In this document: one piece after another, positions 33,050 to 64,000 of the stretch
How the letters are laid out: the number at the start of each line of letters is the position of its first letter
How positions within the stretch are numbered: position 1 is the stretch's first letter
Origin: a virus
IMG/VR virus record: IMGVR_UViG_3300045988_183830
Span: 65,888-129,887 of that record
Reading direction: 5' to 3' (one strand)
DNA length: 64,000 nucleotides
The notes under the pieces: model-generated
Databases searched by the model: none
What the model was told of the DNA's origin: nothing
The model's input: the letters and a program-made list of their open reading frames with translations, nothing else
Made by a program: the position numbers and the translations under genes

Positions 33050-33448
33050 ATGGCAGACTATTTCAAAGTTGTATATTCGCGGGAGCTTTCCTCAGAATAT
33101 GAGCCGCGTTACATTGTCATACAGCCTAAGACCGGTGCGGTACTGGACGATGCCCAAGGTTTCGGCTACACAAGCCGCGAGAAGGCGGCAAAGGCGTACA
33201 CCTATAAGAAGATGCCGCATCCCGAACAGCGGTCTCTGGCGGCCCGCAAACGCCGCGTAGAGAAGTGGTGTCTGGAGCACCTTGATGTGGTAGATGGTTA
33301 TGCTGACATCTGCTTGCAACATATGAAGGCATCTGGTGATGGACGTATCAGTATGAGCTCTGCTGTTGTTTCCCGTTATTTGAAGGACTGCGGATACGAT
33401 AACCTGCCGTTCTCGGCGCAGGACTTTATCCGCTACTGCAAAACTTAA
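33050..33448 (+). CDS. hypothetical protein
   Basis: RBS ggcaggtga precedes the ATG. This is the first gene after the tRNA. Confidence 0.55.
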   Translation: MADYFKVVYSRELSSEYEPRYIVIQPKTGAVLDDAQGFGYTSREKAAKAYTYKKMPHPEQRSLAARKRRVEKWCLEHLDVVDGYADICLQHMKASGDGRISMSSAVVSRYLKDCGYDNLPFSAQDFIRYCKT

Positions 33449-33472
33449 AATCAAAAAAGAGGTGAAAGGACA

Positions 33473-35650
33473 ATGAAGAACACCATTTTGGGGAAGGTGC
33501 GCTTCAATGACATCGAGGCGTACAAGGATGAGTGGGCAGCGAGAAGCCGTGAATGGCGCTTTGAAAAGGCCCGACAGGAAGAAATTCGCATTATCAGAGA
33601 GAATGACAGAGACGATGCAACGCTCTTTTTGGGGCTTACGGACCTGTCCAGTCTCTCACAAGATAGTGACACCAATGCGAGATGGTGGCGGAAACACATT
33701 GAGGACTATCTCAAGAACCTTTCTGAGTTCATCGACTACTGTAAGACCTATGAGCAGCCCGCCAACGTATATAGCATTTATGAGGGCATCGGTATGGTCG
33801 TCGGTCTCGGCAGCCGCAGATTCTTTCTCTACCAGCCGGACTCTCTGGTGGCGGAGTATGTGCCGGTCAAGGACTATTCCGCAATGTCCGTGGGCGAGAT
33901 GCGAGCCCTCGCAACGCACGGCGCTTCATCGACGCTGCCGGCATCCGTGCCTGAGTCTCTTTCGGTCTCTCAGGTGCGTGAAGGCCTGTCTGACCGTGAA
34001 GCGGAGCTGAACTCGCTCAAGGCCGATATTGAGGCAACGAGAAATGGCACCAGCGAAGAACTTCGCGCCCTCAAGGAAGAGGTCGAGCGTGCTATGGCCG
34101 CGCTGGAAGAGAAGAAGTCTAAGCTGATGGACGAACTATCTGCCAAGCGTGAGGCGCTGGAAGAGCAGGTTGAGATGATGAATAATCAGATTTACCTGCT
34201 GGAGTCCCAGATTTATGCTATCCGCTGCTACATGGGTGAGACAATCAATTTTACCCGTATCCGCACTGGCCGGAATGCACCGGAGAAAGAACCGGTCGTC
34301 CTGTTCCAGAAGCTCCGTTTCCTTGATGAAGAGATGGGGCGCCTTGCTTCCATTTACAACATGAAAGAAAGCAAGCTGAAGTATTTCGAGGAGTTCCTCG
34401 CAGCGTCTCCTGTTGCGCTGGATACCTTTGCTCCCAGCGAGAAGTGTGTTGCGCTGGTTCGCCTCAGCAAGACTGGCAAGCACTTCTTTGGTCATGAGAC
34501 GTGGAGCAATATGCTGGACAGCTACAATATCTATCACGGTAACACCATCGGTATTGTCATTCGTAATGGCGAGAACGTCTATATAGGCTGGACTGACCCT
34601 GAGGAAGTTCATGTAACGGACGATTTCATCATGGACGTGAACCCCAAGGATTTCCGTGTGAATACGGAATATATCGGTCAGGAGGATGAGCACCAGCGCA
34701 AACAGCGTGTGAAGGAAGAGCGTACACAGGCCCGCAGCATGGTCGTGGAGATGGTATCCCGCATCTTTCTGTTCAATATTCTGCAGGGTGTGGTGGATAG
34801 CTCCAACATCCTTTCTCTGCCGGCTGGCGTCAAAATCTCCAAATCCTCCGAGTATGTCGTGTTTTCCATGGCTGACCGCTGGTTGACCGACAACCGATAC
34901 GGCAGCTTTGTAGACATCGTGGAGCGATGCAACAAGCCTGATGCAAAGAAGGGTGATAGTATTTTGACCGTCCTTTCTTTGACTCCGGAGAGAGAATACA
35001 GGTATAGGCCTTACTGGAATGACCGTGGCAGGGGAGACCGCAACCGCACCCACGACTGTTCCGTTTCTGACTGCGCCATCTATCCCATCAATCTGGTGGA
35101 GTATGACGCACCGGAGCAGCGCACCTACTATCTCTTTAATGGCATTCGCTATGCCACATATGGCGATGGCAGCAATCTCGGCGACGACGCTGAAATCATT
35201 GAAACTGTCATGGAGACTAAGCCGCATTTCTTCGTATCTGTGGAGAAGGGCGAGTCCATAAACCGCCGTTGGTATGATGACGAGGGCAAGAAACGCGCCC
35301 GTTCTAATTTTGAGGTATTCCGCGACGAATATATCAACCTCGCTTTTATGAACTCTGAGTGGCTGACTTACGCCATCAATACCAAGAACCTCGGTGGATG
35401 GATTATCGGCGGCAAGTGCGTGGATTACGCATATGGTATTAAGTACCTGAACGTGGCCCTGCAGCACATCCGCCAGCGCGAGACATCCGAGAAAGAGTAC
35501 ATTGACCATGCTTGCCCCGGCTTTACGGAGAAGCACCCTTCTTGGATGGTAGACCTGTCAGAATGGAAGCTCGTCGAAGATGTCCATAGCCTCCATTCCC
35601 GCAATGTATCGAAATTTGTGAGATGGTATGCTCAGAAGGAGGCGTCCTAA
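33473..35650 (+). CDS. hypothetical protein (725 aa) with central coiled-coil
   Basis: RBS aagaggtgaaaggac. The coiled-coil segment is ELRALKEEVERAMAALEEKKSKLMDELSAKREALEEQVEMMNNQ. Confidence 0.6.
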   Translation: MKNTILGKVRFNDIEAYKDEWAARSREWRFEKARQEEIRIIRENDRDDATLFLGLTDLSSLSQDSDTNARWWRKHIEDYLKNLSEFIDYCKTYEQPANVYSIYEGIGMVVGLGSRRFFLYQPDSLVAEYVPVKDYSAMSVGEMRALATHGASSTLPASVPESLSVSQVREGLSDREAELNSLKADIEATRNGTSEELRALKEEVERAMAALEEKKSKLMDELSAKREALEEQVEMMNNQIYLLESQIYAIRCYMGETINFTRIRTGRNAPEKEPVVLFQKLRFLDEEMGRLASIYNMKESKLKYFEEFLAASPVALDTFAPSEKCVALVRLSKTGKHFFGHETWSNMLDSYNIYHGNTIGIVIRNGENVYIGWTDPEEVHVTDDFIMDVNPKDFRVNTEYIGQEDEHQRKQRVKEERTQARSMVVEMVSRIFLFNILQGVVDSSNILSLPAGVKISKSSEYVVFSMADRWLTDNRYGSFVDIVERCNKPDAKKGDSILTVLSLTPEREYRYRPYWNDRGRGDRNRTHDCSVSDCAIYPINLVEYDAPEQRTYYLFNGIRYATYGDGSNLGDDAEIIETVMETKPHFFVSVEKGESINRRWYDDEGKKRARSNFEVFRDEYINLAFMNSEWLTYAINTKNLGGWIIGGKCVDYAYGIKYLNVALQHIRQRETSEKEYIDHACPGFTEKHPSWMVDLSEWKLVEDVHSLHSRNVSKFVRWYAQKEAS

Positions 35651-35869
35651 ATGGAAGCTACACCTGCCATAACCTCACGGTTGCCTTATAGACATTGTGC
35701 CAAGTGCGTCAACCGTATCGTACTTCACGCATTCTCCGAAAGCCATTGTCTCGAATGCGGCAAAGTCATCATCTGCTTTAATACCCCTGCAGACTTGCTC
35801 TGCCCTGAGTGTGCCATCAAATTGAACCGCTGCATCCATTGCGGCGTTGAATTGGATAAGGAGGATTAA
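35651..35869 (+). CDS. small Cys-rich zinc-ribbon protein
   Basis: RBS aggagg. The Cys pairs are CAKC...CLEC...CPEC...CIHC. Confidence 0.5.
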   Translation: MEATPAITSRLPYRHCAKCVNRIVLHAFSESHCLECGKVIICFNTPADLLCPECAIKLNRCIHCGVELDKED

Positions 35870-35872
35870 ATT

Positions 35873-36145
35873 ATGAGCAATGTCGTCATCATCAAGCACC
35901 CCAAATGCCCGCAGACCTTCCTGTTCTCCGTCCCTGACGGTTGTGCGCTCCATACCGGCGATTTCGTGACGGTGGACACAAAGAAGGGCAAGACCGTTGG
36001 CATCTGTGCCTCGGACAGCTTCTCCGTTCCTGAGAGTGCTTTGAAGCACATCGTTGCTGCTTTTGGCGGTTCTGAGCCTCTGCGTACAGTTGTCGGGATG
36101 TTGGATGAGCGTCCGCTGGTCAGCGCTGTTAAGGAGGCATCTTAA
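35873..36145 (+). CDS. hypothetical protein
   Basis: RBS aaggagg precedes the ATG. Confidence 0.55.
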   Translation: MSNVVIIKHPKCPQTFLFSVPDGCALHTGDFVTVDTKKGKTVGICASDSFSVPESALKHIVAAFGGSEPLRTVVGMLDERPLVSAVKEAS

Positions 36146-36348
36146 TGGCCGCCGGCAAACAGCGTGCAGGTGCAGACCGGCGCTACATCGTCTTTTGCAC
36201 TGCCTGCGGGCAGGTTGCCCCGCTGACCGACAAGGTTGATGTCGATGGGCACGTCATGTATGACTGGCACCGCCCTTGTCCCCGTTGCGGCAAAGAGGAG
36301 TGGGCGACGCGGTTCATCGACACTCTCGGCTCCACAGGAAAGAAATAA
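36145..36348 (+). CDS. small zinc-ribbon protein
   Basis: RBS aaggagg. The start overlaps the preceding stop codon. The Cys pairs are CTACGQ...CPRCG. Confidence 0.5.
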   Translation: MAAGKQRAGADRRYIVFCTACGQVAPLTDKVDVDGHVMYDWHRPCPRCGKEEWATRFIDTLGSTGKK

Positions 36349-36351
36349 TCA

Positions 36352-36385
36352 AAAGCGGCTCTGCATCTGGCGGAGCCGCTTTTCC
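36352..36385. terminator. terminator after the plus-strand block
   Basis: aaaagcggctctgcatctggcggagccgcttttcc. Confidence 0.65.
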
Positions 36386-36600
36386 ACTTTGTTCACAAAG
36401 TTTTCCACAACATATTGTGTATCTGTTGGTTCTCAACACAATATGCTATATATTTCCATTTCCCGCAAACGTCTGCAGTTTGCAAACGCCAAGAGCAAAA
36501 TGCAAACTATAGTTTGCAAATCTCTTAGTTCAATCCAGTTGCGACTTTGCATCCTTTAGTAGTAAGTTGGTCGCAAGTTAGTTGCAACTTGAAAGTAACA
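36386..36600. other. non-coding palindrome/iteron-rich region between convergent operon ends
   Basis: The region contains a GTTTGCAAAC perfect palindrome, TGCAAACTATAGTTTGCA, gtcgcaagttagttgcaact, and at least 7 TTGCAA-like half-sites in about 110 bp. There is also the inverted repeat cacaacatattgtgt / acacaatatgctat and a DnaA-box-like TTTTCCACA. Confidence 0.4.
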
Positions 36601-36603
36601 TAA

Positions 36604-36640
36604 CAAAAAAAGCACCTCTCTTTCGAGAGGTGCTTTCAGT
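36604..36640 (-). terminator. terminator of the minus-strand operon A
   Basis: aaaaaaagcacctctctttcgagaggtgctttcag. Confidence 0.65.
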
Positions 36641-38005
36641 TTAGAATTTCAGTTGGTCATCAGTTATTTTTGCGATTTGCGGCAGCTTGCGAGCTTCTTC
36701 GGTACGAAGCTGGAACATATCCAACTCATAATTACCGAGCCGCACGCGGTCAAGACCATCGGCATCCTTGAAGATGTCAAAGAGGCTTTTGACGCGCAGC
36801 GCATCTTGCTTATCCAACCAATGTTTCTCGATGAAGTCGTATCCTTCCTTATCGGGGCGGCAGTGATACTCCATCAGAAACAGTGTGATGGGGTCCGTAT
36901 CAGGATATGCTTCCTGCAGCATCTTCGCACTCTCGGCGCCGTGGGTGTTGTCCTCTGAATCACTGCATCTACCTGTGTCATGGTACAGTGCGGCATCAAT
37001 CAAAATCTCCTTGTCTTCCAAGTCCAGACCCTTCATATATGCCAACAGCATACACATGAACAGGACACGGCCAGCATGAGCCTTTCCGTGTAGTTTGCTT
37101 GCCATTTGGAAAGGAACGGCATCATAGTCGGCAGTCCTCTGATAGAGCCAGAAGTCATCTATCGCGCCGTCATCCACGGCCTCATTGAGCCAGTCGATAC
37201 CATAGAAGGGGAAGTCTTCAACCTCCTTGATGTCATCGGGAGATACAATAACTTCAGCCTCCACACCTTCGAAATACTCAATGACAGAGGCTTTTTCGAC
37301 TGTAGCCCGAAATACCTTCGCATTGTCAGACGGGAAGCGTGTGGCGAAGAACACGGCCACGGCAGGGTCCAGCGTCCAAGAGAATGCCTCCTCCAGACTT
37401 GCGCTTTCATCGCCGGCGCCACGGTAGACCGTCAGGGTGTCGGGATACTTCTTGAGTCCCTCCTCCGTTGCCTGAATCTGTTCCGGTGTTTTCATGCTCT
37501 TGAGCTTCAGTATGCCGTCCCGTCCAAGTGCGGAGCATCCGTAATCGGAAAAAGGGTAGACATCATAGAACAGTTTGTAAGCGCCATCAAAACCCTCATC
37601 AACGAGCTTCTTCAGATACTCTATCCGCATCCGGTCGTTGAGTGCCGTGATGATGAAGCTACAGTTGCCTGAAGCAATTTTCTCCTTCAGTTGCTCAACA
37701 GCCCCTCGGATTTCAGGTGTTTTATCCTCGCCGTCGGCTGCCATTGTGAGACTGTGGCAGGGGAATATGACCTTATCCTTATCCCAGTAATAGAACGGGG
37801 TGAAGCCGCAGCCATAGTAGAGGTTTTCAATGATGTCGTCGGTCAGATGAAACTTCTTCCGCAGTTCATCGGCTGTATAGAGCGCCATATAGCCGTTCCG
37901 ACTGGCAATCGCCTTTGCTTTCTCTGATGTGACAGACGCAGCAGGGAGGAGGTTGCTGAACGATTCGACATTGCGGGATTTCATTACCACATCAGCGATG
38001 TTCAA
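36641..38005 (-). CDS. HD-domain phosphohydrolase with an unrecognised N-terminal domain of about 300 aa
   Basis: The HD motifs HGKAHAGRV...AALYHDTGR...DADGLDR are in the C-terminal third. The likely start is the TTG 9 nt after GGAGG. The ORF-track start at 38014 abuts the SD. Confidence 0.6.
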   Translation of the reverse strand: MNIADVVMKSRNVESFSNLLPAASVTSEKAKAIASRNGYMALYTADELRKKFHLTDDIIENLYYGCGFTPFYYWDKDKVIFPCHSLTMAADGEDKTPEIRGAVEQLKEKIASGNCSFIITALNDRMRIEYLKKLVDEGFDGAYKLFYDVYPFSDYGCSALGRDGILKLKSMKTPEQIQATEEGLKKYPDTLTVYRGAGDESASLEEAFSWTLDPAVAVFFATRFPSDNAKVFRATVEKASVIEYFEGVEAEVIVSPDDIKEVEDFPFYGIDWLNEAVDDGAIDDFWLYQRTADYDAVPFQMASKLHGKAHAGRVLFMCMLLAYMKGLDLEDKEILIDAALYHDTGRCSDSEDNTHGAESAKMLQEAYPDTDPITLFLMEYHCRPDKEGYDFIEKHWLDKQDALRVKSLFDIFKDADGLDRVRLGNYELDMFQLRTEEARKLPQIAKITDDQLKF

Positions 38006-38201
38006 ACTTTTCAACCTCCTTCAACAATTTCTCTATCACTTCGGCAGCATCAGCTTCAAGGCTGTTAATGTTGCAGGCACCGTCCACATCTCGGTACTTG
38101 CACCGCTTATCGCCGCAGCCGAAGTTGTCTTCAGCGTCCGTGCCATAGCAACGGAGTCTCTTGACAACTCTCAACGCATCACTTTTCAGCTTGGCTGTCA
38201 T
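37992..38201 (-). CDS. small Cys-containing hypothetical protein (69 aa)
   Basis: RBS aagaaaggagaaagcaca precedes the ATG. Confidence 0.5.
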   Translation of the reverse strand: MTAKLKSDALRVVKRLRCYGTDAEDNFGCGDKRCKYRDVDGACNINSLEADAAEVIEKLLKEVEKFEHR

Positions 38202-38236
38202 TGTGCTTTCTCCTTTCTTGTCTAAATAGACTTTAA

Positions 38237-39283
38237 TCAGGCTCTAACATATCGTGCCTTCTTGGACATTCCGATACGTTTAATGCTCCCTTCCTTCACC
38301 ATGCGTCCAAGCACAGCCTCCACGGTGGACGGGCTTACATCAGGATGAATGGCGCATATCTCCGCTTTGGAAATTGGCATCAGGCTGCCAAGTACCGTAG
38401 CTTCGATTCGCGTCATCTTCGTGATTTTCTTCCCATTGACGACTGCAAACCGCTTATCCAACTCCTTATAGCACTGATACAGTATGGACAAGAAGTTTTG
38501 AATAAATGGCACATAGTCGTTGTTGTTCTCCATCCAGCCCTTCGAGGATTGCTCCAGTGCGTCGTAATAATACGCCTTGTGATGGTTGATTTGTTCCTCG
38601 AAAGAAATGTACTTTCCTACATCGAAGCCGTTTTTGTAGAGCAGCAGAAGTGAGAGCAATCTCGACATTCTGCCGTTACCGTCGCGGAAAGGATGGATAC
38701 ACAGGAAGTCCAAAATAACGCAGGGAATAAGAAGAAGCTGGTTGATATTGGAGTTGGAACAGGCATCCAAATAGGCCAGTTCCAGTTGCTCCATAGTAGC
38801 CGGTGTCTCTGCCGCAGGTGTGGGACGAAACCTCACACGCCGCGTGCCATCCGCCGCGACTTCCAGAATCACATTGTCATCCGTTTTGTACTGCCCACCG
38901 TTCTCGTCGCCTGCGACTGCCATCATGGTTTCATGGAGCCGCAGAATGTCAGGAACGCCGAAAGACAGGTACTCATATCCTGAATGCACAGCGTTGAGTG
39001 CATCTCTGTATCCGGCAATTTCCGCCTCATCATGGTTCAGAGGCGCACTGCTGTGGTTTACGATTTCCGCAATGCGCTTGTCGCTGGTCACAATGCCCTC
39101 AATGGCGTTGGAGCTCTTTACTGACTGAACTCGCGCAATGGATTCCAGTTCAGTGAAGACTTTTCCAAACTCCTGCTTACGGAAGCCGGCTTCAGTACGA
39201 AGAGAGTAGATTTTGCTCGTGATGTTCACAAGGCTTGCAGGAAGCAGCCCGTTATCGAGGAAAGAATAATCAAACTTTCTCAT
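38237..39283 (-). CDS. Fic/DOC family protein
   Basis: The Fic motif is HPFRDGNGRMSRLL. ATG follows the RBS aaaggagctggtgtt. An internal promoter-like TTGATT-17-TATAAT lies at 39308-39336. Confidence 0.75.
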   Translation of the reverse strand: MRKFDYSFLDNGLLPASLVNITSKIYSLRTEAGFRKQEFGKVFTELESIARVQSVKSSNAIEGIVTSDKRIAEIVNHSSAPLNHDEAEIAGYRDALNAVHSGYEYLSFGVPDILRLHETMMAVAGDENGGQYKTDDNVILEVAADGTRRVRFRPTPAAETPATMEQLELAYLDACSNSNINQLLLIPCVILDFLCIHPFRDGNGRMSRLLSLLLLYKNGFDVGKYISFEEQINHHKAYYYDALEQSSKGWMENNNDYVPFIQNFLSILYQCYKELDKRFAVVNGKKITKMTRIEATVLGSLMPISKAEICAIHPDVSPSTVEAVLGRMVKEGSIKRIGMSKKARYVRA

Positions 39284-39358
39284 AACACCAGCTCCTTTCT
39301 GCACATTATTATACATCTTTATATGCAGAAAATCAACTCCTTCCTGCAGCAAATGGGC

Positions 39359-39595
39359 TTAAAGAACAACATCAGCAAGAACTTCCTTGGAAACCGTGTT
39401 GTTCCACATCCGCACACTTTTCCTGATACTGCTGGCATAGATTTTTGTGCCGGCATAGGTCTTCAGGTTTGCGTGGAACGGAAACCCCTTTTTGCAACTC
39501 TGACATACAGCCTTACAATCGGGCTTGCCACAGTGGGAATACAGCTTGATTTTGCCACCACACACGGGGCAGGGAGCAATGTAACCTAAATCCAT
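39359..39595 (-). CDS. Lar-family-like zinc-ribbon protein (possible restriction-alleviation protein)
   Basis: RBS gaaaggagataatact. The zinc ribbon is CPVCGG...CGKPDC...CQSC and the protein is about 79 aa. The resemblance to the Lar family (CPFCGG...WN) comes from recall and is low-confidence. Confidence 0.4.
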   Translation of the reverse strand: MDLGYIAPCPVCGGKIKLYSHCGKPDCKAVCQSCKKGFPFHANLKTYAGTKIYASSIRKSVRMWNNTVSKEVLADVVL

Positions 39596-39649
39596 AGTAT
39601 TATCTCCTTTCAAGAAGAGCCACCCCGAAGGGTGGCTCTTTAGTTGTAG

Positions 39650-41878: not shown

Positions 41879-41899
41879 GCGTCATTTCTCCTTTCTTAT

Positions 41900-50316: not shown

Positions 50317-50318
50317 TC

Positions 50319-53831: not shown

Positions 53832-53844
53832 TGAAGACACCTCC

Positions 53845-55008: not shown

Positions 55009-55250
55009 TTGTTTCTCCTTTCTCCCAGCCTTGAAGGACTTACGGGAACACAAAAATGTATGTATATATATAAAAAAAGACAGCCATCCCAAGATTGGGA
55101 TAACTGTCTTGATTCTTTATGGTGACTTGAAAACGGAGATAATCTCCTTTATAAAAATAGCTTCGTAATTATAATTCTATACTACCACAGTTTGATATTT
55201 TGTCAACGTTTTCAGATAAAGAAAAAGCTCCCCGAAGGGAGCTTTTTTCA
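55009..55250 (-). promoter_or_regulatory. regulatory module copy 3
   Basis: - Terminator: aaagctccccgaagggagcttttttc at 55222-50.
- Promoter: TTGACA (55201-06), 16-nt spacer, TGGTAGTAT (55179-87).
- Palindrome: GGAGATAATCTCC (55135-47).
- Leader hairpin: gacagccatccc...gggataactgtc (55079-108).
- RBS region: conserved block ...ggacttacgggaa. Confidence 0.6.
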
Positions 55251-55599: not shown

Positions 55600-56830
55600 T
55601 CGAACCCTCCTCGCTGACGAACTGCTCGCGCAGTTCCTTCACGGTTTCGTCGATAGCCTCCTGTGCCAGCACATCAATGCGGGCAATGGCATTGATATAA
55701 TCAATAACCATATCACCTTTCTTGGTCAGGAAAACACGGGCAATGACCTCGCCTTCAGCGTCATCGTCGGGAGTACGCCAGCCATCAATGGAAACGGCGG
55801 TGATAACATCGCCGTAGCCAACGGGAGAATCTTCGCGGAAATCGTGACGGATTTCCGTCCAGTATCCCTGCTTCTCGTCGCTGGGTGCCGGCTCGTCTGT
55901 GATTGTGACCTCGTAGGTGCCGTTGCCGTAGTTGAACCTGCTGGTACACAGCAACAAACGGTCATCATCCATGTTCCAGACGTTGATGCCGTTCGCATCA
56001 TACAGTGCGAGATTCGCAACAACTTTAGCTTCCCTTCGGATAATCTGAAGGACGGCGGTGAAGCCGTTGTCAAACTTGTTGGTATATTCAGCGATAACGA
56101 CATTTGTTGCATAGATGATATTGTTGGGAACATTCTCGCCCTGCATATAGCTGATATACTTCGTTGCGACCACAGCAGGAATTCTGATAGTAGTTGCGTG
56201 GAGCGCCGGTGTGGACGTATCTTTGACGACTTCCATGACATACACATTGTCGCAGTAATCAAAGGTGTAGATGCCCTCCAGCTCGCTTTCAGAAGCCAGA
56301 CACATGACATCAGACATTTCCTCATTCCAGAGGACGGGATTGACATAGAATCCCTTGTCATCAGAGCAAACAGTGACGGTTGCGGTATAGCCATCAGGGA
56401 ACGTCAGGCCGAAGCAACGAACACCGGCATACTTGCCAATACCGGACTCCACAGCGGGAATATGCTCCTCGCCACAAGGCATATCCAGCAGTTCCTGACA
56501 CATTTCGGCATCCTTGGAAGGGACAAGAAGGGTAGCCTTATACCGCGTAGACACGGCAGGCTCATTCTTCTTGAAGCACATCTCAGGATGCTCCTTCAGC
56601 CACGCGGTGATTTTCTCACGGTTCTGCGGCGTGTCAATGTACGTCCAGTCCGGTACGTTGGGCATATCATGGATGATTTTGATACCATCCTTTTCTGCCT
56701 TACGCGCCGCCGCACGGTTTGGGAGGTCGCTCGAATCACTTCTCCGAATGTGCTCCACGTTGGGCACAAAGGGCAGGTCGCTCCCGGTGGGTGTGACACA
56801 GATAACATAACCCTTGTCGTTCTTGTTCAT
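55592..56830 (-). CDS. hypothetical protein (412 aa), overlaps the start of the MazF-like gene by 8 nt
   Basis: ATG follows gaaaggagtatatttt. The ORF-track start is a TTG inside the SD. Confidence 0.55.
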   Translation of the reverse strand: MNKNDKGYVICVTPTGSDLPFVPNVEHIRRSDSSDLPNRAAARKAEKDGIKIIHDMPNVPDWTYIDTPQNREKITAWLKEHPEMCFKKNEPAVSTRYKATLLVPSKDAEMCQELLDMPCGEEHIPAVESGIGKYAGVRCFGLTFPDGYTATVTVCSDDKGFYVNPVLWNEEMSDVMCLASESELEGIYTFDYCDNVYVMEVVKDTSTPALHATTIRIPAVVATKYISYMQGENVPNNIIYATNVVIAEYTNKFDNGFTAVLQIIRREAKVVANLALYDANGINVWNMDDDRLLLCTSRFNYGNGTYEVTITDEPAPSDEKQGYWTEIRHDFREDSPVGYGDVITAVSIDGWRTPDDDAEGEVIARVFLTKKGDMVIDYINAIARIDVLAQEAIDETVKELREQFVSEEGSNE

Positions 56831-56866
56831 AAAATATACTCCTTTCAATTTCGGAAACTCACTTGC

Positions 56867-57772
56867 TTACTCAGGAATGTCGTCAATGTGCAGCACAACG
56901 CCAACGCTGGAAACATATCCCTCATCATCGAGAATGTCGAACTTCCGATGGGGGAGATTGCAGATGACAGACCACGGGCAAACAGAATCGCCAGAGTTGT
57001 CATCGCACCAACGAAACTCGATGTCCGGCTCGCCAGCGGCTGTCTCGTAGAAACCTTGAGCTTTACTCGCAGTCAGCTTGACACCAATAAAGGCGCCGAT
57101 TTCCTGCGTCATAGCGCCCTCGATTTCCACGAGGTCGTCCGATGCGGCATACACCACTACGAGGCCCTTGACGGCCCCCAGAGCCGCAGGAACAACGCTC
57201 CGTTCGTTTCTGTTGTTCAGCTCCGCAGCCCAACGTTCCAGAAACTCGGCATGGGTGACGTCTTTGACCTCCTTGGACTGAGACGCAGCCTCTTTCTCTA
57301 TCAGCTCTTTCAGCTTCGGGCAATGAGCAGCAGGAACAGCCGTACAGAAACCGCCGACAGCGGTACAGTTGAAGTTGTCCTTGTGCATATGCTCACAGTT
57401 GACGCAGTTCGGACGATAGGTAGACTTGAGCACATCCAGCTCATGCCGAAGCGCATAGATGGTCGCATCCGTCTCTCGCATTTTGTCGCTGAGAGCTCCG
57501 ACCAGTTCAGGTACGGAGGCATCGGGGCCGGGGCCAAACCTCTCGCCCAGAATGCGGCGGAGGGTCTCGTTCTCCTGCCTGAGCGTCAGCAGCTCTTCAG
57601 GGTCAAGGAAGGTGTCCTCGAAAGCCGCCAGCCGGTCTTTCAGCCGGTTGCGGCAATAGAGTGTAGAGCACATCTCCTTTACAGCGTCGGATTCGCCCGT
57701 GCGCTCAGACTTACACCGGTTGCAGTCCACACAGGCCTGTCCATCAGGAAGGCGGATGGTGAGTCGTTCCAT
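56867..57772 (-). CDS. hypothetical protein with N-terminal Cys cluster and coiled-coil
   Basis: RBS gagaaaggagactgaaa. The Cys clusters are CVDCNRC...CSTLYC and CVNCEHMHKDNFNC. Confidence 0.5.
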   Translation of the reverse strand: MERLTIRLPDGQACVDCNRCKSERTGESDAVKEMCSTLYCRNRLKDRLAAFEDTFLDPEELLTLRQENETLRRILGERFGPGPDASVPELVGALSDKMRETDATIYALRHELDVLKSTYRPNCVNCEHMHKDNFNCTAVGGFCTAVPAAHCPKLKELIEKEAASQSKEVKDVTHAEFLERWAAELNNRNERSVVPAALGAVKGLVVVYAASDDLVEIEGAMTQEIGAFIGVKLTASKAQGFYETAAGEPDIEFRWCDDNSGDSVCPWSVICNLPHRKFDILDDEGYVSSVGVVLHIDDIPE

Positions 57773-57774
57773 TT

Positions 57775-58437
57775 TCAGTCTCCTTTCTCGTCATTATCAT
57801 TGTCCACGATAAACGCCGTCATAAACTCGATATTGAGGCCTGTGAACGGCGGCATCCTGTTGAGCGTTTCGGACATCGCACGCTCACCGTGCAGCATCTC
57901 CAGAAATTCCTTTGCAGGAATGAACTCCTTATAGCGTTCTTTCTTGGGATACACGATAGAGGTGGACACGGCCACAACGCTCTCGCTGCGGCAGTAGGAC
58001 ACATAACAGCGGCGCTCGAAGTCGTCAAACTCCTGTGCCAACATGACACGGAACGTGACAGGCTTTTCTTCCTCTGTCAGTCGGGTTCTGTCAGAATAGA
58101 TGCGCTGATAGACACCCAGCCGTGTGTCGAACTTTTCAGGACGATAGGTACAGCCGCGCATGGACTCCATACGCTCGACGAACTGGTCGTGATGATACGG
58201 CCAAGAACCCTCGCCCTTTGCGGCCAGCTTGAAGTGCGACTCGTCGATGAACCGGCAGGTGTAGACTTTGGGTTCAGCACGAGGCCCATCGGTAATCAGC
58301 AGTTTCCCGCCATTGGGCAGGGTGAACACGGGATTACCTCGCCGGTCACGGAAGATGATGGTCTTGTCGTAGTCCACGACCAAACTATTCGGCACAATGC
58401 AGTACCGCCCGACAGGTCTGTCAGACTTAAAGGTCAT
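57775..58437 (-). CDS. hypothetical protein
   Basis: RBS gaaaggagaatacatt. Confidence 0.5.
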   Translation of the reverse strand: MTFKSDRPVGRYCIVPNSLVVDYDKTIIFRDRRGNPVFTLPNGGKLLITDGPRAEPKVYTCRFIDESHFKLAAKGEGSWPYHHDQFVERMESMRGCTYRPEKFDTRLGVYQRIYSDRTRLTEEEKPVTFRVMLAQEFDDFERRCYVSYCRSESVVAVSTSIVYPKKERYKEFIPAKEFLEMLHGERAMSETLNRMPPFTGLNIEFMTAFIVDNDNDEKGD

Positions 58438-58499
58438 AATGTATTCTCCTTTCTTTTTTTTCGGGAGAGGGCGGGGAAGTCCCCGCCCTCATTTGGGCC

Positions 58500-59162
58500 T
58501 CAGTAGTCGATGCACTCGTCCATCACGTCCGCTACGGCCTTGATGTCCTCAAAGGTGACATTCTCCGTCACGGGGATGGCGACATACAGTTCCCACTGGC
58601 AGAACGGGGTGTCCGTGTCCTTGGGGAACAGCACATCTGCGTGCAGTTTCCTCAGCTTCTCGTCCGCATTCAGCTTCTCAGCCAGCTTGCGGCCAGAGTC
58701 CATCAGTGCCACGCGGACACCGACATCGCGCTTTCCTTTTTTGCTGGACATCTCCTCGCCGGCCTCTGCGATGACCAGCAAACACGGCTGGCCGTTCACA
58801 GTGGCGATGTAGGTGGGGAAGTTCAGGCTGTCGGTCCAGCAGGTGAAATAACCCCAGCGCAGCAGGGGCGGCACCTTCGTGTACCAGTCCATGTCTTCCA
58901 CAGGAGGCTGATATTCGCCTTTCAGGAAGGCTTCGTACTTCGCCTTATCGTATTCGGCGAGCTTGGTATCGAAGCCGGCGGGGTACAGTCCGGGCACGCC
59001 ACGATAATCGGGAACGTTGATGCTGCACAGGGAAGCGGTGTCGTACCGCCCATCCCAGTCCTTAGGGGGCTTCTTGTCGGGGGTGTTAAACTCCCACACG
59101 AATACCTCCCCGCAGCCGTTGCAGAAAAACTGAGTTTCGTCGATGCTGATGATTTTGAACAT
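58500..59162 (-). CDS. hypothetical protein
   Basis: RBS gaaaggagaaaaaaaca. There is an N-terminal CNGCG motif. Confidence 0.5.
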   Translation of the reverse strand: MFKIISIDETQFFCNGCGEVFVWEFNTPDKKPPKDWDGRYDTASLCSINVPDYRGVPGLYPAGFDTKLAEYDKAKYEAFLKGEYQPPVEDMDWYTKVPPLLRWGYFTCWTDSLNFPTYIATVNGQPCLLVIAEAGEEMSSKKGKRDVGVRVALMDSGRKLAEKLNADEKLRKLHADVLFPKDTDTPFCQWELYVAIPVTENVTFEDIKAVADVMDECIDY

Positions 59163-59190
59163 TGTTTTTTTCTCCTTTCATTTTTTTGAC

Positions 59191-59439
59191 TTACAAATCC
59201 ATGAACGGGCCTTCGACCCGACATTGGTCCCATCTGCGATTGCGCGGCTCGTTGTGCCGCATAGCGTCGAGATAGCTCTGCGCCTGAGCCCTATCGCCGA
59301 AGACGATGGGCTGCACGCCATCATGGTCGATTTTCGACCAGTAATAGGCGTAGCCGGATGCTCTGGGGTCAGCACAAAGCGTATAACCATCGCTATCGCG
59401 GATAACAAACTTCCATGTGAGAACTCGTCCAATACCCAT
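59191..59439 (-). CDS. hypothetical small protein
   Basis: The RBS (gagagg) is weak. Confidence 0.4.
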   Translation of the reverse strand: MGIGRVLTWKFVIRDSDGYTLCADPRASGYAYYWSKIDHDGVQPIVFGDRAQAQSYLDAMRHNEPRNRRWDQCRVEGPFMDL

Positions 59440-59448
59440 AGCAGCCTC

Positions 59449-60033
59449 TCAATCCGCCGCAGACTCGCGGTAGACCAACACGTCGTGGCCGGCGTAAATA
59501 GCCTGCAGCTCGTCCTTGGTGATGCTCAGGCTGCTGAACAGCCAATCGTCGGCATCCTTCCAGTCGGAGAACTTGGGGCCGATTTCCTTCCGGAACAGCT
59601 CCAGCGTCTCAAACAGGAGGTCCTTGGCACGGGGGGAGAGGTCTTCCTCAGGGTCAGGTGCGGGCATCTTGAAGTCGTTGCAGTCGTTGATATCTACCTC
59701 ATCCGTGGAAGTCTCGTAGTCCTTCCAGAGATGGGCATTGTCCTCGAACCGCTTGACGATTTCGGCGATGGCGATGTCGGTCGTCGGCTTATCCGTGGTC
59801 TCCTCAAAGTAGCAAAACTCAAAGAAGGGATGGTCGGCCTCCGTCTCACTGCCGAAACGCTCGTCGTTCAGACCGAGAGGACCGGGGATGAAGTATTCGC
59901 CGGCATCGAGACTGGCGATAATACGCATCTTTTCTTCCTCCGACATCTGGCCGGCGAAAACGACCTCATGATGGACTTTGTAGTTGTCCGCATCACGATA
60001 GAGATAGGCGAGTCGGGTGTTGATGACACTCAT
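59449..60033 (-). CDS. highly acidic hypothetical protein (194 aa)
   Basis: Module RBS gggagaaaggagaaaaaca. D+E content is about 25%. This is the first gene after module copy 4. Confidence 0.55.
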   Translation of the reverse strand: MSVINTRLAYLYRDADNYKVHHEVVFAGQMSEEEKMRIIASLDAGEYFIPGPLGLNDERFGSETEADHPFFEFCYFEETTDKPTTDIAIAEIVKRFEDNAHLWKDYETSTDEVDINDCNDFKMPAPDPEEDLSPRAKDLLFETLELFRKEIGPKFSDWKDADDWLFSSLSITKDELQAIYAGHDVLVYRESAAD

Positions 60034-60280
60034 TGTTTTTCTCCTTTCTCCCTGCCTGTAATAAGGACTTACGGGAACTCAAAATGTATGAAAATATATA
60101 AAAAAGACAGCTACCCCAAGATTGGGATAACTGTCTGAATTTACGTATGGTGACTTGGAAAACGGAGATAATCTCCTTTATAAAAATTAGCTTCGTAATT
60201 ATAATTCTATACTACCACAGTTTGATATTTTGTCAATCGTTTTAGTCGAAAAGAAAAGCGCCCCGTCAGGGACGCTTTTC
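60034..60280 (-). promoter_or_regulatory. regulatory module copy 4
   Basis: - Terminator: aaagcgccccgtcagggacgctttt at 60255-80.
- Promoter: TTGACA (60231-36), 16-nt spacer, TGGTAGTAT (60209-17).
- Palindrome: GGAGATAATCTCC (60164-76).
- Leader hairpin: gacagctacccc...gggataactgtc (60106-35).
- RBS region: conserved block ...ggacttacgggaa. Confidence 0.6.
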
Positions 60281-60305: not shown

Positions 60306-62318
60306 TTAACGCGCTTCAAACAGCTTCTCAATGTCGAAATCCTTGATGATGTACTCATCAGGATTTGCAACGACTGCATCATACTCCTCACGGCTCTGGA
60401 AACTGTCGATGACTTTCTTCTCGGCGCTACTCAACGCATCATACGGCTTGGTGCCATAGTCAGCAGGCAGCCAACCGCGATTCATTCCGACGAAGATATT
60501 GAGCCGGTCGATGAGCCGCTTGGCAGAGCTCTTGAACTTCAACTTCATTGTTCCGTTCTTGTAGAAGGAACCAGTGAAGAATGTGAAGGTAATGCTTTTG
60601 CCAATGCTCTTTCCGCAAATGGCGTTGTCCGTTACAGCACTCATCGGGTCGATAGCCTTGGATGCTTCTTTTCCTCCGTTGAGCAGGTAAAGGGCGCACT
60701 CAATGTCATGCACTACGTGTGCGGCTTTATCCTGGTTGAAGTCGTCTCTATAGCGGTCGAAGACGTAGGAATACATAGAGAGCTTCGGGAACGCCAAACG
60801 GAACCCAGCGGTCTGTTTCTTGTCGAAAGAGCAATATTTCTGGGTGTTCTCACTTGATAGCGCGTCCGCATCGTAATCGTACACATCATACCGTTGCCTA
60901 CTTCCCATGCTCCCCAGCCTATCGAACAGGTTCAGCAGGGAAGTGGTGCAACCTCTACGCAGCTCCCGCCGAATATCCTCCATTACAGTCCTCACAGTGT
61001 AGTCGTTGAGGTCGTAATCCTTCAATTCAGCGCGACGACGCTTGTAGTCTTCTTCCATGTTGGCAGGCATCAGACCGATGTTCGCGGCTTTGTGGATGAA
61101 AGTGTCCCAGTACCTTGAGCGAACGCCTTCCAAGCACGCCATTCGAAGTTCAACGCCGGAGTCCCTCCAAGGATGGTCGTCCACAGCCAGTTTGACATAG
61201 GGCTGGTCGTAACACTCAGAGCCTCTCATTATAAAGGGCTTAACCTCTTCGTAGGAGCTAATGAAGGAGTTGCAAATACGAGCCTTGAGCTTAAACTCCT
61301 CAATGATGTCCTGCGGAAACTTCTTCCGCCAGTCGGATAGGAACGGCTTGACCGTCTCATAGTCCTTCAGGTCGCAGATGCTCTCGCTCAGAATATCCGC
61401 CTCGTTCCGACTGTCTCTGCGCGTAGGCTTAATGTTGGCGTAAATGATAGCCCACTCAGGAGCCGTCCGCTTCGCCCTATCGCGCTTAAACGCCTTCTCC
61501 ACGAGAAAGACAGAAGAGTCCGTCTTTTTCAGTATGAAGGACAGGCTCGCATCTACAGCCAGTGTAGAGTAGGGAACAATGGCAAGAAGCTGACCGCCGT
61601 ATTTCTGCAGCATGGTTACAGCCTTACCAATCCATCGCGCAGCGAAAGCAGGGGAAACCGCTGCTGTGTGGGCGAACATAATGAGAGGGTAGGGCTTCAA
61701 CGTGTCGAACTTCGAGAAATCGTCATAAACGACACGGATGCCTTCTTCCCGCAGTGTCTCCGCCACACCAACGTCCTCGACCACAGTGTCCAAATAGTTT
61801 TCGCCTTGGTAAGCTCTCTCGTGCTGCCAAACCTTGTTGGTGTTCCTGTAACAGCCGGCAAAGCGGCGGAAGCATTCATGGAGCTGAAGCTCGCTCATGT
61901 CGCCGCAGATTGGGTTCAGGATGTCTCCGCCGCGCACGAGGGACCAGTCCACCATGCGAAACGCCTTACCACAGACGTAGGGGGTAAGGGCCTCAGGTGT
62001 GGTTGCGTACCGCCGCCTGACTTTAGGGGCGGATACCTTGTAAGTGTCTACGCCCTTGCTCTCGAACCATTCTCTGAATTTCTCCTTTGCCCCTGCAAGG
62101 TTGGCTGACGTACTTCCATAGATGTGCGTGGTTCGCGTCCAGTAGTCATTGAGGCAATCACCAAAGTATCCATAGGCCTCATAGGTTCCGTTACCGCCTC
62201 GGATGATATCGGGGTCCTTGCAAATACACCCGACGTTCTTGCCCTTGTAGTAGATATCAACTACCGTTCTTCCGGCATCCTTTCCGGGGGCAACAAATGA
62301 AAGCTGCGCTCTGCTCAT
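60306..62318 (-). CDS. hypothetical protein (670 aa)
   Basis: ATG follows the module-type RBS gggagaaaggagaaaaact. No motif is recognised. Confidence 0.6.
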   Translation of the reverse strand: MSRAQLSFVAPGKDAGRTVVDIYYKGKNVGCICKDPDIIRGGNGTYEAYGYFGDCLNDYWTRTTHIYGSTSANLAGAKEKFREWFESKGVDTYKVSAPKVRRRYATTPEALTPYVCGKAFRMVDWSLVRGGDILNPICGDMSELQLHECFRRFAGCYRNTNKVWQHERAYQGENYLDTVVEDVGVAETLREEGIRVVYDDFSKFDTLKPYPLIMFAHTAAVSPAFAARWIGKAVTMLQKYGGQLLAIVPYSTLAVDASLSFILKKTDSSVFLVEKAFKRDRAKRTAPEWAIIYANIKPTRRDSRNEADILSESICDLKDYETVKPFLSDWRKKFPQDIIEEFKLKARICNSFISSYEEVKPFIMRGSECYDQPYVKLAVDDHPWRDSGVELRMACLEGVRSRYWDTFIHKAANIGLMPANMEEDYKRRRAELKDYDLNDYTVRTVMEDIRRELRRGCTTSLLNLFDRLGSMGSRQRYDVYDYDADALSSENTQKYCSFDKKQTAGFRLAFPKLSMYSYVFDRYRDDFNQDKAAHVVHDIECALYLLNGGKEASKAIDPMSAVTDNAICGKSIGKSITFTFFTGSFYKNGTMKLKFKSSAKRLIDRLNIFVGMNRGWLPADYGTKPYDALSSAEKKVIDSFQSREEYDAVVANPDEYIIKDFDIEKLFEAR

Positions 62319-62372
62319 AGTTTTTCTCCTTTCTCCCTGCCTTGAAGGACTTACGGGAAATAAAATGTATTT
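62319..62372 (-). promoter_or_regulatory. partial module (copy 5): only the RBS-proximal conserved leader block, no promoter or hairpin
   Basis: tctcctttctccctgccttgaaggacttacgggaaataaaatgtat matches the proximal part of copies 1, 3, 4 and 6 and then diverges into the upstream gene. Confidence 0.5.
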
Positions 62373-62606
62373 TTACTGATGAAGTGGGCTGATAGGGCAT
62401 TGGATGGAAATAATGACCACCAATGCCAGCCCGCTGCCAAAGATAATGATGAGTGCAAGGTAGGCCAGAAAACTGCCGGTACGTCCCTTAAACTTTTCGC
62501 CGATGAAAGCGACGTGATGAAGGCCGAGCCACAACGAGCCGACCAGCAGGAACGCCACAAACAGCATCACACCAACACCTCTGACAGCGCCTAAGAATGT
62601 CTGCAT
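62373..62606 (-). CDS. small membrane protein (2 TM)
   Basis: The ORF is hydrophobic and has the RBS agaaaggagaatacc. Confidence 0.5.
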   Translation of the reverse strand: MQTFLGAVRGVGVMLFVAFLLVGSLWLGLHHVAFIGEKFKGRTGSFLAYLALIIIFGSGLALVVIISIQCPISPLHQ

Positions 62607-62620
62607 GGGTATTCTCCTTT

Positions 62621-63652
62621 CTATTGATTTCTGCGTTCCGCAGCAATCACGGCCAAAACGTTTTCTAACCGCTGCTTGCTCACCTTACCGGCCATTGGAC
62701 CGTCCTCATCCACACACCGTACCACGAATGGGTAGGTATGGGCCTTTGGCTGGATACCGATGATGATGAAGTCATGTCCATCAAACGAGTACATCTCACG
62801 GTAAGAGATGTCGATACCATAGCGTTCAAGTCGATACCGGATATACTCTTTGTTGCGGTAGAATGCGGCTTCTTCGTCCTTGGCATTTTCTAAGGCCAGA
62901 GCATCCTTGTCTGTGCATTGCAGCTCGTAGCAAATCTGCTCCATCTCCTCACGGGGAATGAGGATTTCCTTGCCAGTAGAGACTTCGCCGATTCGCTTTC
63001 CAACAACGTACTTCCACGGACGGTACTTGTAGACACCAACGAGTTCGTACTCATATCGTCCCTTCTTGAAGGTGATGCCGAAATCGTTCGGATTCAGCAA
63101 ACGTTTTGGCGGAACGTCCCGTGGCAAAGTCGCACAGTGAGCACAGTAGGCATCCCACTCGATTTTCTCGGTCGGAACTTGCGCTTCGTCATGGAATACC
63201 GTGCGGTAAAATCTGCACTCAAACAGATTGATGAGAACATTTCGCCTGATTGTTTTGTCCTCCAGCTCCGCATCGAAGAGTTTCGAACTCCGTTCCACAA
63301 CGGTTGCCCTTACGCCGAACTGTGCTGCCACACGCTGCACAGCAGGAAGCATATCCTGACGAATAAGCTCGCGGGACACGTCTGAATCGTAATTCGTATC
63401 CATCACAATACGGATACCAATACCGATGATGTAGCTGCCACTTTTCTGAATGTAGCCACAGTTATGGCGCTTGATGCCGAAGCGTTCTGCGCCGAAAGGG
63501 TCGTAGCCGCAGTTGGCATTGCCTTTCAGTGCTTCCTCCACAGCATCCATCAGCTTGTCACGAATCTGTCTGTCCATGTCGGTATCAAATGGTACGGCCA
63601 GACTAATATCGCTCCATCTGCCGGGTGTGCCGTTGAGAGATTTCACATCCAT
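62621..63652 (-). CDS. hypothetical protein (343 aa)
   Basis: ATG follows the module RBS gggagaaaggagaaaaac. The ORF-track N-terminus is translated leader. Confidence 0.55.
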   Translation of the reverse strand: MDVKSLNGTPGRWSDISLAVPFDTDMDRQIRDKLMDAVEEALKGNANCGYDPFGAERFGIKRHNCGYIQKSGSYIIGIGIRIVMDTNYDSDVSRELIRQDMLPAVQRVAAQFGVRATVVERSSKLFDAELEDKTIRRNVLINLFECRFYRTVFHDEAQVPTEKIEWDAYCAHCATLPRDVPPKRLLNPNDFGITFKKGRYEYELVGVYKYRPWKYVVGKRIGEVSTGKEILIPREEMEQICYELQCTDKDALALENAKDEEAAFYRNKEYIRYRLERYGIDISYREMYSFDGHDFIIIGIQPKAHTYPFVVRCVDEDGPMAGKVSKQRLENVLAVIAAERRNQ

Positions 63653-63897
63653 GTTTTTCTCCTTTCTCCCTGCCTGTAAAGAGGACTTATGGGAACATAT
63701 AATGTATAAAAATATATAAAAAAAGACAGCCACCCCAAGATTGGGATAACTGTCTGAATTCATGTGGTGACTTGAAAACGGAGATAATCTCCTTTATAAA
63801 AATAGCTTCGTAATTATAATTCTATACTACCACAAACAGATACTTTGTCAATGAATTTAGCACGAAAAAAAAGAAGCTCCCGAAGGAGCTTCTTTCA
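63653..63897 (-). promoter_or_regulatory. regulatory module copy 6
   Basis: - Terminator: gaagctcccgaaggagcttc at 63866-97.
- Promoter: TTGACA (63846-51), 16-nt spacer of different sequence, TGGTAGTAT (63824-32).
- Palindrome: GGAGATAATCTCC (63780-92).
- Leader hairpin: gacagccacccc...gggataactgtc (63725-54).
- RBS region: conserved block ...ggacttatgggaa. Confidence 0.6.
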
Positions 63898-63910
63898 AAA
63901 TTGTGGTAAT

Positions 63911-64000
63911 TATTCGGTTTTCACAGCCGGCGTGGTGACACCATCGAAGATATTTCCGATGACACGGTATTTAGTGCCGAACAGCTTGCAGAACGGTACG
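63911..64000 (-). CDS. 3' end of a further minus-strand gene (C-terminus ...AVKTE), truncated by window edge
   Basis: The open frame runs to the window end and stops 14 nt before the copy-6 terminator, consistent with the operon pattern. Confidence 0.35.

Follow-up and report, generated by a model that had tools for sequence, protein, structure and literature searches.

Organization of the gene array

The right half of a 64,000-nt window (the whole stretch of DNA analysed here, taken from the IMG/VR virus record IMGVR_UViG_3300045988_183830) carries a long array of closely packed genes that read in one direction and are divided into units by a repeated promoter-terminator cassette. Coordinates are positions in the window, and the array reads on its minus strand. 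Open reading frame (ORF) picking, which agrees with two independent database gene callings, places 37 consecutive minus-strand genes in the array (Table 1), and the 3' end of a 38th, encoding a YopX protein, follows at the right edge of the window. A preliminary description, made from the sequence of the window alone, had outlined a one-directional array over 33,050-64,000 with tight packing, overlapping stops and starts, and a strong ribosome-binding site before each gene. The array itself and both of these properties were recovered. Coding sequence makes up 93% of the array, with eight start/stop overlaps and 17 more gaps of at most 40 nt. A Shine-Dalgarno-like motif is found upstream of 35 of the 37 genes, and AGGAG lies within 18 nt of the start in 29 of them, compared with 1.8% of other minus-strand ATGs. 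The left limit, however, had to be moved: the array starts at approximately 36.6 kb, and 33,050-36,348 is occupied by five plus-strand genes belonging to the left arm of the window. The long ORFs that cross the array on the plus strand (e.g. 55,499-57,934) were rejected as shadow ORFs.

The array extends for about 11 kb past position 64,000, with two further cassette-headed units, a second PemK gene and the YopX gene; its far end holds two orphan genes and, at the head of the array, a gene for a RecG-like helicase. The portion between 36.6 and 64 kb is thus the distal 27 kb of a co-oriented island of approximately 38 kb and 53 genes, in which the RecG-led unit comes first and seven transcription units, each of 3-8 kb, come after it.

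Table 1. Features of the array, its units and cassettes, and its left border (positions in the window).
Feature	Position	Strand	Details
Genes outside the array	33,050-36,348	+	five genes (132, 725, 72, 90 and 67 aa); continue left arm; ORFs, database gene calls
Terminator facing that of the array	36,351-36,383	+	
Strong intrinsic terminator closing the array	36,608-36,637	-	
Array	36,641-63,652	-	37 co-oriented genes, five cassette-headed units; ORFs, ribosome-binding sites, gaps, database gene calls
Unit 1	60,306-63,652	-	343-aa protein, 77-aa membrane protein, 670-aa DUF4942 protein
Unit 2	55,255-60,033	-	seven genes; first, 194-aa acidic protein; last, 412-aa gene overlapping PemK
Unit 3	50,095-55,008	-	nine genes; XRE, 71-aa acidic protein and zeta (51,019-51,904), 236-aa and 75-aa proteins
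Unit 4	44,558-49,869	-	eleven genes; ProQ_C-like (weak), 213-aa acidic protein, two small membrane proteins, DUF4314, 345-aa and 350-aa proteins
Unit 5	36,641-44,277	-	seven genes; AAA_5-like, DUF3232, VWA/CobT_C, Cys4 78-aa protein, Fic, 69-aa protein, HD
YopX gene, 3' end	63,910-64,000	-	38th gene, next in array
DUF4942	60,306-62,318	-	within 670-aa protein; Pfam E 5.5e-14
PemK	55,255-55,599	-	Pfam E 8e-13
HTH_3/XRE regulator	52,038-52,499	-	Pfam E 1.6e-7
Zeta toxin	51,019-51,699	-	P-loop GPNGSGKS; Pfam E 3e-7
DUF4314	46,696-46,914	-	Pfam E 1.4e-26
AAA_5-like	42,400-44,277	-	625 aa; weak match, Pfam E 9e-4
DUF3232	41,900-42,373	-	Pfam E 3.5e-17
VWA/CobT_C	39,650-41,878	-	742 aa; Pfam E 3.4e-12
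Fic	38,237-39,283	-	348 aa; Pfam E 2.2e-15
HD protein	36,641-38,005	-	454 aa, last array gene; generic HD family, Pfam E 6.5e-5
Cassette c63	63,653-63,897	-	upstream terminator 63,869-63,896; promoter TTGACA-16-TGgTAGTAT 63,824-63,851; leader terminator 63,724-63,755; Shine-Dalgarno
Cassette c60	60,083-60,279	-	promoter 60,209-60,236; leader terminator 60,105-60,136
Cassette c55	55,055-55,250	-	upstream terminator 55,222-55,247; promoter 55,179-55,206; leader terminator 55,077-55,110
Cassette c49	49,905-50,092	-	upstream terminator 50,069-50,092; promoter 50,023-50,050; leader terminator 49,920-49,951
Cassette c44	44,332-44,530	-	promoter 44,454-44,481; leader terminator 44,348-44,385
TTTATA-16/17-TATAAT matches	44,423-44,450; 49,992-50,019; 55,148-55,175; 60,177-60,205; 63,793-63,820	+	one in each cassette
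Element GTTCCCGTAAGTCCTTAnnACAGGCnGGGAG	about 63,660-63,700; 60,040-60,080; 55,015-55,050; 44,285-44,325	-	

The promoter-terminator cassette

The repeated promoter cassette mentioned in the preliminary description does exist, in five copies in the window that share approximately 90 invariant bases, far beyond chance. Each copy has the same general plan. A GC-rich hairpin between runs of A and T forms the terminator of the preceding unit, and a near-consensus sigma-A promoter (TTGACA-16-TGgTAGTAT) comes second, promoter and terminator scans being in agreement. The third part is a leader of about 95 nt, in which an invariant stretch with a 5-bp hairpin is followed by a strong intrinsic terminator (a 13-16 bp hairpin and then T5-8). 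The 3' part consists of an AT-rich spacer, often a second conserved element of the untranslated region, and then GAAAGGAG; a strong Shine-Dalgarno sequence and the first gene of a unit follow each of the five copies in the window and two copies beyond it.

Among relatives of the element, 97 distinct versions of the cassette were collected. Eight of the 14 pairs of the leader-terminator hairpin have compensatory changes in this set, and the small hairpin covaries as well, being GGAGA/TCTCC in some copies and GGAGC/GCTCC in others. The cassette matches no Rfam family (the whole window was searched, and the sole match was a tRNA-Ser). When either strand was folded as single-stranded DNA (ssDNA), only the two terminators paired, and the -35 and -10 elements fell outside any duplex. 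Because these elements are unpaired, the cassette is not a Frpo-type promoter, and the Frpo/ssi-type ssDNA promoter was rejected as a candidate. Its sequence is that of a normal promoter for double-stranded DNA, with a conserved hairpin and then an intrinsic terminator downstream.

Two additional elements accompany the cassette. Every copy contains a plus-strand TTTATA-16/17-TATAAT match overlapping the minus-strand -10 region, and in relatives this area reads as a direct repeat, GTAGTATAGTAGTATAAT; the match or repeat may be a divergent promoter or an operator. The second conserved element, GTTCCCGTAAGTCCTTAnnACAGGCnGGGAG, is present in most units, not all, past the leader terminator and ahead of the Shine-Dalgarno sequence, and may form a small hairpin.

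The replicon and its relatives

The window corresponds to positions 70,642-134,641 of ENA contig k141_110154 (ERZ27274281; 174,496 bp), and the same sequence, in the opposite orientation and with another start point, is found in a JGI assembly of 174,547 bp. The ends of each assembly fall within the other, which indicates a circle, and the element is therefore apparently a circular replicon of approximately 174.5 kb. Close relatives match the window at both edges, with a RecG-like protein that is 100% identical at the right and an adhesin that is 93% identical at the left. One of them, IMGVR_UViG_3300045988_183936 (190,756 bp; hereafter 183936), was walked in 10 kb steps, and approximately 165 kb of it was examined.

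To the left of the window, 183936 has genes for ParB, ParA, a VWA tip pilin and two RepL-like proteins, and in relatives a full Gram-positive type IV secretion system (T4SS) gene set begins about 9 kb left of the window. In 183936, the T4SS operon is headed by a cassette and encodes two orphan proteins, a CHC2/DUF3854 primase-like protein, two TrbC-like pilins, a CHAP+lysozyme hydrolase, a 917-aa coupling protein, an 825-aa VirB4-like ATPase, and DUF5697 and DUF6100 proteins. The best PLSDB matches of the coupling protein have 33% identity and are named "VirD4-like, CD1115 family". The VirB4-type ATPase, the coupling protein and the peptidoglycan hydrolase are encoded by close relatives as well as by members of the family in other samples. 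Beyond the T4SS genes are LexA-like genes, N6/N4-methylase genes, a YhcG nuclease and DUF3846, followed by YpsA, YqaJ, RecD2 and SSB. A short opposite-strand patch (a serine recombinase, two sortases, DUF1064 and DnaJ) comes next, and then RecG and the array; the two sortase-like genes are located about 20 kb past the right edge of the window in the relative.

The preliminary description had considered the region to be part of a mobile element, whether a plasmid, an integrative element or a phage. The T4SS gene set, RepL and ParAB of near-identical relatives indicate that the mobile element is a conjugative plasmid, and the phage early region given as one alternative was not supported. An inspection of the flanks for an oriT (origin of transfer), a relaxase or packaging genes, which had been proposed, found none of them in the approximately 165 kb of 183936 that was examined; T4SS genes were found. 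Pfam searches detected no capsid, portal, terminase or tail domain in the window or in the approximately 165 kb of 183936, and the large ORFs, for which the possibility of phage structural proteins had been raised, gave no such match. Megablast of positions 33,050-58,000 against phage (50,697 records) and plasmid collections also gave no match. Since RepL, ParAB, a T4SS and a coupling protein are present and no virion genes were seen, the viral label in IMG/VR is probably a misclassification of a family of 170-200 kb plasmids. Contigs of the family cluster at this size, and many of the source records are human gut metagenomes. The closest cultured or binned relatives of the T4SS hydrolase (approximately 34% identity) are from Oscillospiraceae and Pseudoflavonifractor, and a GTDB genome scan with the DUF4942 protein gave no match. 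The host appears to be a human-gut member of the Clostridia, probably one of the Oscillospiraceae.

One cassette across the plasmid

In 183936, at least 11 copies of the cassette were mapped outside its window-equivalent part, at 75.6, 103.4, 132.9, 142.6, 150.8, 161.8, 172.3, 175.4, 178.7, 185.2 and 188.8 kb, and copies in the window-equivalent part would add to this number. The copy at 75.6 kb is directly upstream of the T4SS operon and that at 150.8 kb precedes the SSB gene, while the copy at 161.8 kb comprises the promoter part only and is on the opposite strand. Since the T4SS operon, the SSB gene and other DNA-processing units are likewise preceded by this cassette, the island belongs, by this sequence criterion, to one plasmid-wide regulon. 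Single orientation, tight packing and the repeated promoter hold for approximately 140 kb of the plasmid, including the T4SS operon, and therefore are not markers of the array region.

In the IncP plasmid RK2, transfer, maintenance and accessory operons are joined in one circuit through a scattered operator/promoter set under KorA/KorB. The two plasmids are alike in having one set of regulatory sequences distributed around the replicon. However, their sequences, proteins and hosts are unrelated, and the RK2 sites are repressor operators rather than promoter-leader-terminator cassettes.

Exchange of units between plasmid variants

Comparison of plasmid variants indicates that units are gained, lost and reordered precisely at cassette borders. 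For instance, in three relatives the unit that starts at 49.9 kb in the window comes directly after YopX. Relative 183936 has an additional unit inserted ahead of the 343-aa gene, and a different relative has other genes in place of those after DUF4942. Two further samples become homologous to the window precisely at 50,051, the -35 element of cassette c49, and carry different units upstream of it. RRXRR-family (PF14239) genes of 489-494 aa are inserted at differing points among samples, some within the array. Plasmid copies that are otherwise almost identical differ by the insertion of these genes and of a TnpB/OrfB_IS605 gene.

Gene content

All 37 array proteins were searched against Pfam profiles (E ≤ 0.01). 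The MazF/PemK-like, zeta-like, XRE and DUF4314-like genes named in the preliminary description were all matched, whereas the AAA_5-like/DUF3232/VWA trio (39,650-44,277), the Fic protein, the HD protein and the DUF4942 protein had been overlooked. The Cys-rich, zinc-ribbon-type proteins that it listed are represented by five array proteins with at least two CxxC motifs; one small Cys4 protein of unit 5 (78 aa) has a weak Lar-like match (E 0.003), and the ProQ_C-like match in unit 4 is similarly weak (sub-threshold). Twenty-one of the 37 proteins have an isoelectric point (pI) of 5.5 or lower, and no family was detected for approximately two thirds of the genes. No relaxase, integrase, replication or virion domain was found among the 37 proteins, in line with the earlier statement that structural, replication and integration genes are lacking from the region.

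Both toxin genes overlap the gene upstream. The partner of the zeta toxin is a small acidic protein (71 aa; 11-nt overlap), and that of PemK is an atypical 412-aa protein (8-nt overlap); Pfam recognised no antitoxin domain in either partner. A perfect TTGACA-18-TATAAT promoter is present inside unit 3 (51,935-51,964, minus strand), directly before the 71-aa/zeta pair, and this module is thus predicted to have its own promoter.

Two proteins described as D/E-rich, of 194 aa (59,449-60,033) and 213 aa (47,342-47,983), are indeed acidic (pI 4.3 and 4.1, 23% D+E). The 194-aa protein has 148 relatives, some with PF14207 (DpnD/PcfM-like), and its N-terminal domain is DpnD/PcfM-like; the name of this family derives from a gene of the pCF10 conjugation region. 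A model built from the alignment has a predicted local distance difference test (pLDDT) score above 90 for the N-domain and moderate scores for the acidic helical tail. The model has no structural neighbour and matched no known DNA mimic. The 213-aa protein is a fusion of two widespread modules (residues ~22-135 and ~140-210; 758 cluster representatives), and its single-sequence model was rejected as unusable (pLDDT 35). PDB sequence and profile searches with the two proteins gave no match. Therefore, the suggestion of a DNA-mimic fold was not borne out for the modelled 194-aa protein, and there is no positive evidence for a DNA-mimic role of the acidic proteins, although DNA mimics share no single fold and a mimic is thus compatible with the absence of a fold match.

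In the left arm of the window, two giant surface adhesins are encoded on the plus strand (2-10,915 and 12,672-18,365). Both contain thioester, TQ-ester (18 and 5 repeats) and SpaA domains; the first is cut by the left window edge and measures 3,801 aa in a relative. Genes for topoisomerase III (22,508-24,805), an Endonuclease_NS_2 nuclease (30,483-31,274) and a flotillin/SPFH protein (31,301-32,737) are on the same strand, and a tRNA-Ser gene (anticodon TGA; 32,780-32,868, plus strand) lies between the flotillin gene and the 132-aa gene.

Function of the island

Taken together, the array is probably a variable establishment/accessory island made of cassette-headed modules on a circular conjugative megaplasmid. 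Its cargo includes PemK, zeta, XRE, Fic, an AAA/VWA pair, HD, DUF4942, DUF4314 and DpnD/PcfM-like proteins together with many orphan acidic or Cys-rich proteins. According to this model, the cassette promoters would act on double-stranded DNA and would be kept down in established cells by a plasmid-encoded repressor, for which the XRE protein of unit 3 is a candidate. The leader terminator would be a second gate that needs antitermination or read-through. Upon entry into a naive cell, or upon induction of transfer, all units would fire together, which would supply the cell, in one burst, with functions for transfer, establishment, addiction and possibly anti-defence.

The closest described systems appear to be the establishment regulons of the Bacillus plasmids p576 and pLS20, where copies of a conserved regulatory sequence (EGeRS2 and EGeRS1, respectively) stand ahead of variable establishment operons that lie in a cluster (Val-Calvo et al. 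2021, PMC8708921). The strong sigma-A promoter in EGeRS2 of p576 is shut off by a plasmid repressor, so that expression in the recipient comes as a transient burst, and EGeRS1 of pLS20 blocks read-through (PMC8708921). As in those plasmids, a conserved sequence is found right upstream of several co-oriented, variable operons of mostly small orphan genes on a Gram-positive conjugative plasmid. The similarity drawn here is one of layout; host and plasmid lineage are unrelated (coupling protein at most 33% identical in PLSDB). Moreover, the cassette described here is approximately 200 bp long and joins the promoter to a leader terminator, and no ardC or methylase was recognised in the array. Copies of the cassette are found ahead of the T4SS operon, the SSB gene and other units too, whereas the conjugation operon of p576/pLS20 has its own promoter. 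The repeated sequence upstream of ribosome-binding sites and the variable content are therefore shared with an establishment regulon, but the confinement of the sequence to establishment operons is not.

A second comparison is with the "Hodor" megaplasmids of gut Bacillota (preprint PMC12934698). These are described as first filed among huge phages and as having no canonical relaxase; they carry ParAB, sortases, a T4SS that includes VirB4 and VirD4, and giant surface proteins that are secreted, all of which resembles the present family. In contrast, Hodors exceed 300 kb and have Rep_3, while the plasmids here are 170-200 kb with a RepL-like protein; the comparison is by description and not by homology. 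A cassette regulon is not among the Hodor features described in the parts of the preprint consulted.

Several observations weigh against an establishment island. No ArdA, Antirestrict/KlcA, PsiB, Ocr, SSB, anti-CRISPR or methylase match was found among the 37 array proteins in Pfam; a profile search for ArdA, Ocr-like, SSB and PsiB families had been suggested in the preliminary description, and of the content at issue it yielded only the DUF4942 domain and the weak Lar-like match. The DUF4942 protein has no D/N/SPP[YFW] methylase motif and no PDB match, and was accordingly rejected as a methylase. The evidence for the T4SS, RepL and ParAB genes comes from close relatives (93-100% protein identity at the window edges) and not from the contig of the window itself. 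Promoter strength, termination and repression are predictions from nucleotide sequence; the repressor is a candidate only and the antiterminator is postulated. Finally, because approximately two thirds of the genes have no family, "establishment" is a reading from context, not from function.

Alternative explanations

The array may instead be a true leading region, i.e. an anti-defence island that is the first DNA to enter the recipient, with its genes on the transferred strand. A leading-region identity was proposed in the preliminary description, and it is possible but doubtful. Leading-region genes are located close downstream of oriT, on the first-entering side, within about 30 ORFs, and are oriented so that the transferred strand serves as template (Samuel & Burstein 2024, PMC11541004). 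Part of the proposal agrees with the data: all 37 genes are on one strand, the toxin-antitoxin genes are typical of such regions, and the content differs between relatives. The DUF4942 protein is also consistent with it, as this domain marks families 24 and 76 (YdiA), which are among the largest in the leading-region gene-family table (PMC11541004 supplement). Thus, like leading-region islands, the array has one-directional small genes with toxin-antitoxin and YdiA-type genes, repeated promoters and high turnover. The other part does not agree. The array has duplex promoters and terminators instead of Frpo-type promoters, the promoter not being within an ssDNA hairpin, and it has no classical anti-defence gene in the Pfam search (ArdA, KlcA, PsiB, SSB or Acr). 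Furthermore, co-orientation and the cassette span approximately 140 kb including the T4SS operon, and so do not single out the array. The window, the next 10 kb and the approximately 165 kb of 183936 yielded no oriT and no relaxase family in Pfam searches, which covered all large ORFs of the regions walked; tblastn of three orphan relaxase candidates against PLSDB returned nothing useful, and no HUH-type motif was evident in ten orphan candidate proteins.

The last gene of the array is relevant to this question. Homologues of the HD protein (27-34% identity) occur on 0.4-0.9 Mb Firmicutes megaplasmids, which MOB-suite types as non-mobilizable despite their mating-pair genes, and on one of these the homologue adjoins SSB, CHC2 primase and RuvC genes. 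HD nucleases have been proposed as relaxases of gut megaplasmids in a recent preprint (PMC12934698). The neighbourhood of the homologues, on relaxase-less megaplasmids with mating-pair genes, is in favour of a leading region, and the HD protein may be a non-canonical relaxase, as a lead only; against this, it matches the generic HD family and not TraI_2. The non-coding gap of approximately 225 bp between the convergent terminators (36,384-36,607) contains an 18-bp perfect palindrome, TGCAAACTATAGTTTGCA, and several TTGCAA-type repeats; its conservation is 98% in one other sample and 83% in a second. Possible roles for this gap are those of an oriT, a resolution site or a centromere-like site. 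If the HD protein were a relaxase, oriT could be located here, with the genes of the array pointing toward it.

A somewhat less probable explanation is a maintenance or host-benefit island for addiction and anti-phage defence, in which PemK, zeta, Fic, AAA/VWA and HD proteins would be addiction or abortive-infection modules. Toxin, Fic, AAA/VWA and HD domains are common in defence islands, and the presence of two toxin families, Fic, the AAA_5-like+VWA pair and an HD domain in the array, a second PemK past the window, and a zeta pair with its own consensus promoter would all fit. However, such genes account for less than one third of the array, and a cassette shared with the T4SS and SSB genes suits transfer-linked expression better than constitutive defence. 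The host-benefit and establishment explanations are not mutually exclusive.

A more speculative proposal, to which we assign a low probability, is that the cassette is both a plasmid-wide switch similar to the lambda N system and a recombination joint for modules of 3-8 kb. As a switch, at least 11-14 identical promoters would produce short leader RNAs that halt at the leader terminator; a plasmid factor would read the conserved 5-bp hairpin and turn RNA polymerase into a read-through form, and transfer, DNA-processing and island genes would be turned on as one. As joints for homologous recombination, the cassettes would let plasmids of gut Clostridia trade these modules, which together would form an integron-like pool of cargo for establishment and anti-defence. 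Phage lambda (N), pLS20 (conAn; PMC8191782) and Tn916 (PMC11658703) similarly have a promoter, a small RNA hairpin and an intrinsic terminator before long multi-gene units, and leader terminators with processive antitermination have been described in the latter two. In contrast to these systems, in which the arrangement occurs once per long operon, there are at least 11-14 repeats per replicon here, each with its own promoter, and the antiterminator is only postulated.

An early region of a large phage or phage-plasmid is very improbable: relatives are filed as viral genomes in IMG/VR, and YopX, YqaJ, DUF1064, RecD2, a "phage tail lysozyme" domain and the weak ProQ_C-like match point in this direction, but the T4SS (with VirB4 and coupling protein), RepL and ParAB, the lack of virion domains in 183936 (of which the remaining ~9 kb is too small for a virion module), the lack of phage matches by megablast, and the position of the lysozyme+CHAP protein inside the T4SS operon all argue against it.

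Implications

Overall, the island is likely of the establishment type, and its description as "leading" or "anti-defence" is partly supported and goes beyond the evidence. A caution follows for similar loci: one-directional small genes and repeated promoters alone do not identify a leading region. The plasmid family is abundant in human gut metagenomes, with dozens of 170-200 kb contigs, and has no close relative in PLSDB or INPHARED; recognition of its conjugative nature changes how such contigs ought to be counted in virome and plasmidome surveys. The island is also a natural test case of a large Gram-positive plasmid that ties transfer and post-transfer functions to one cassette. Because modular exchange is the pattern expected for establishment and anti-defence cargo, its approximately 35 orphan genes, already parsed into exchanged modules, form a compact list of candidates for functional screens.

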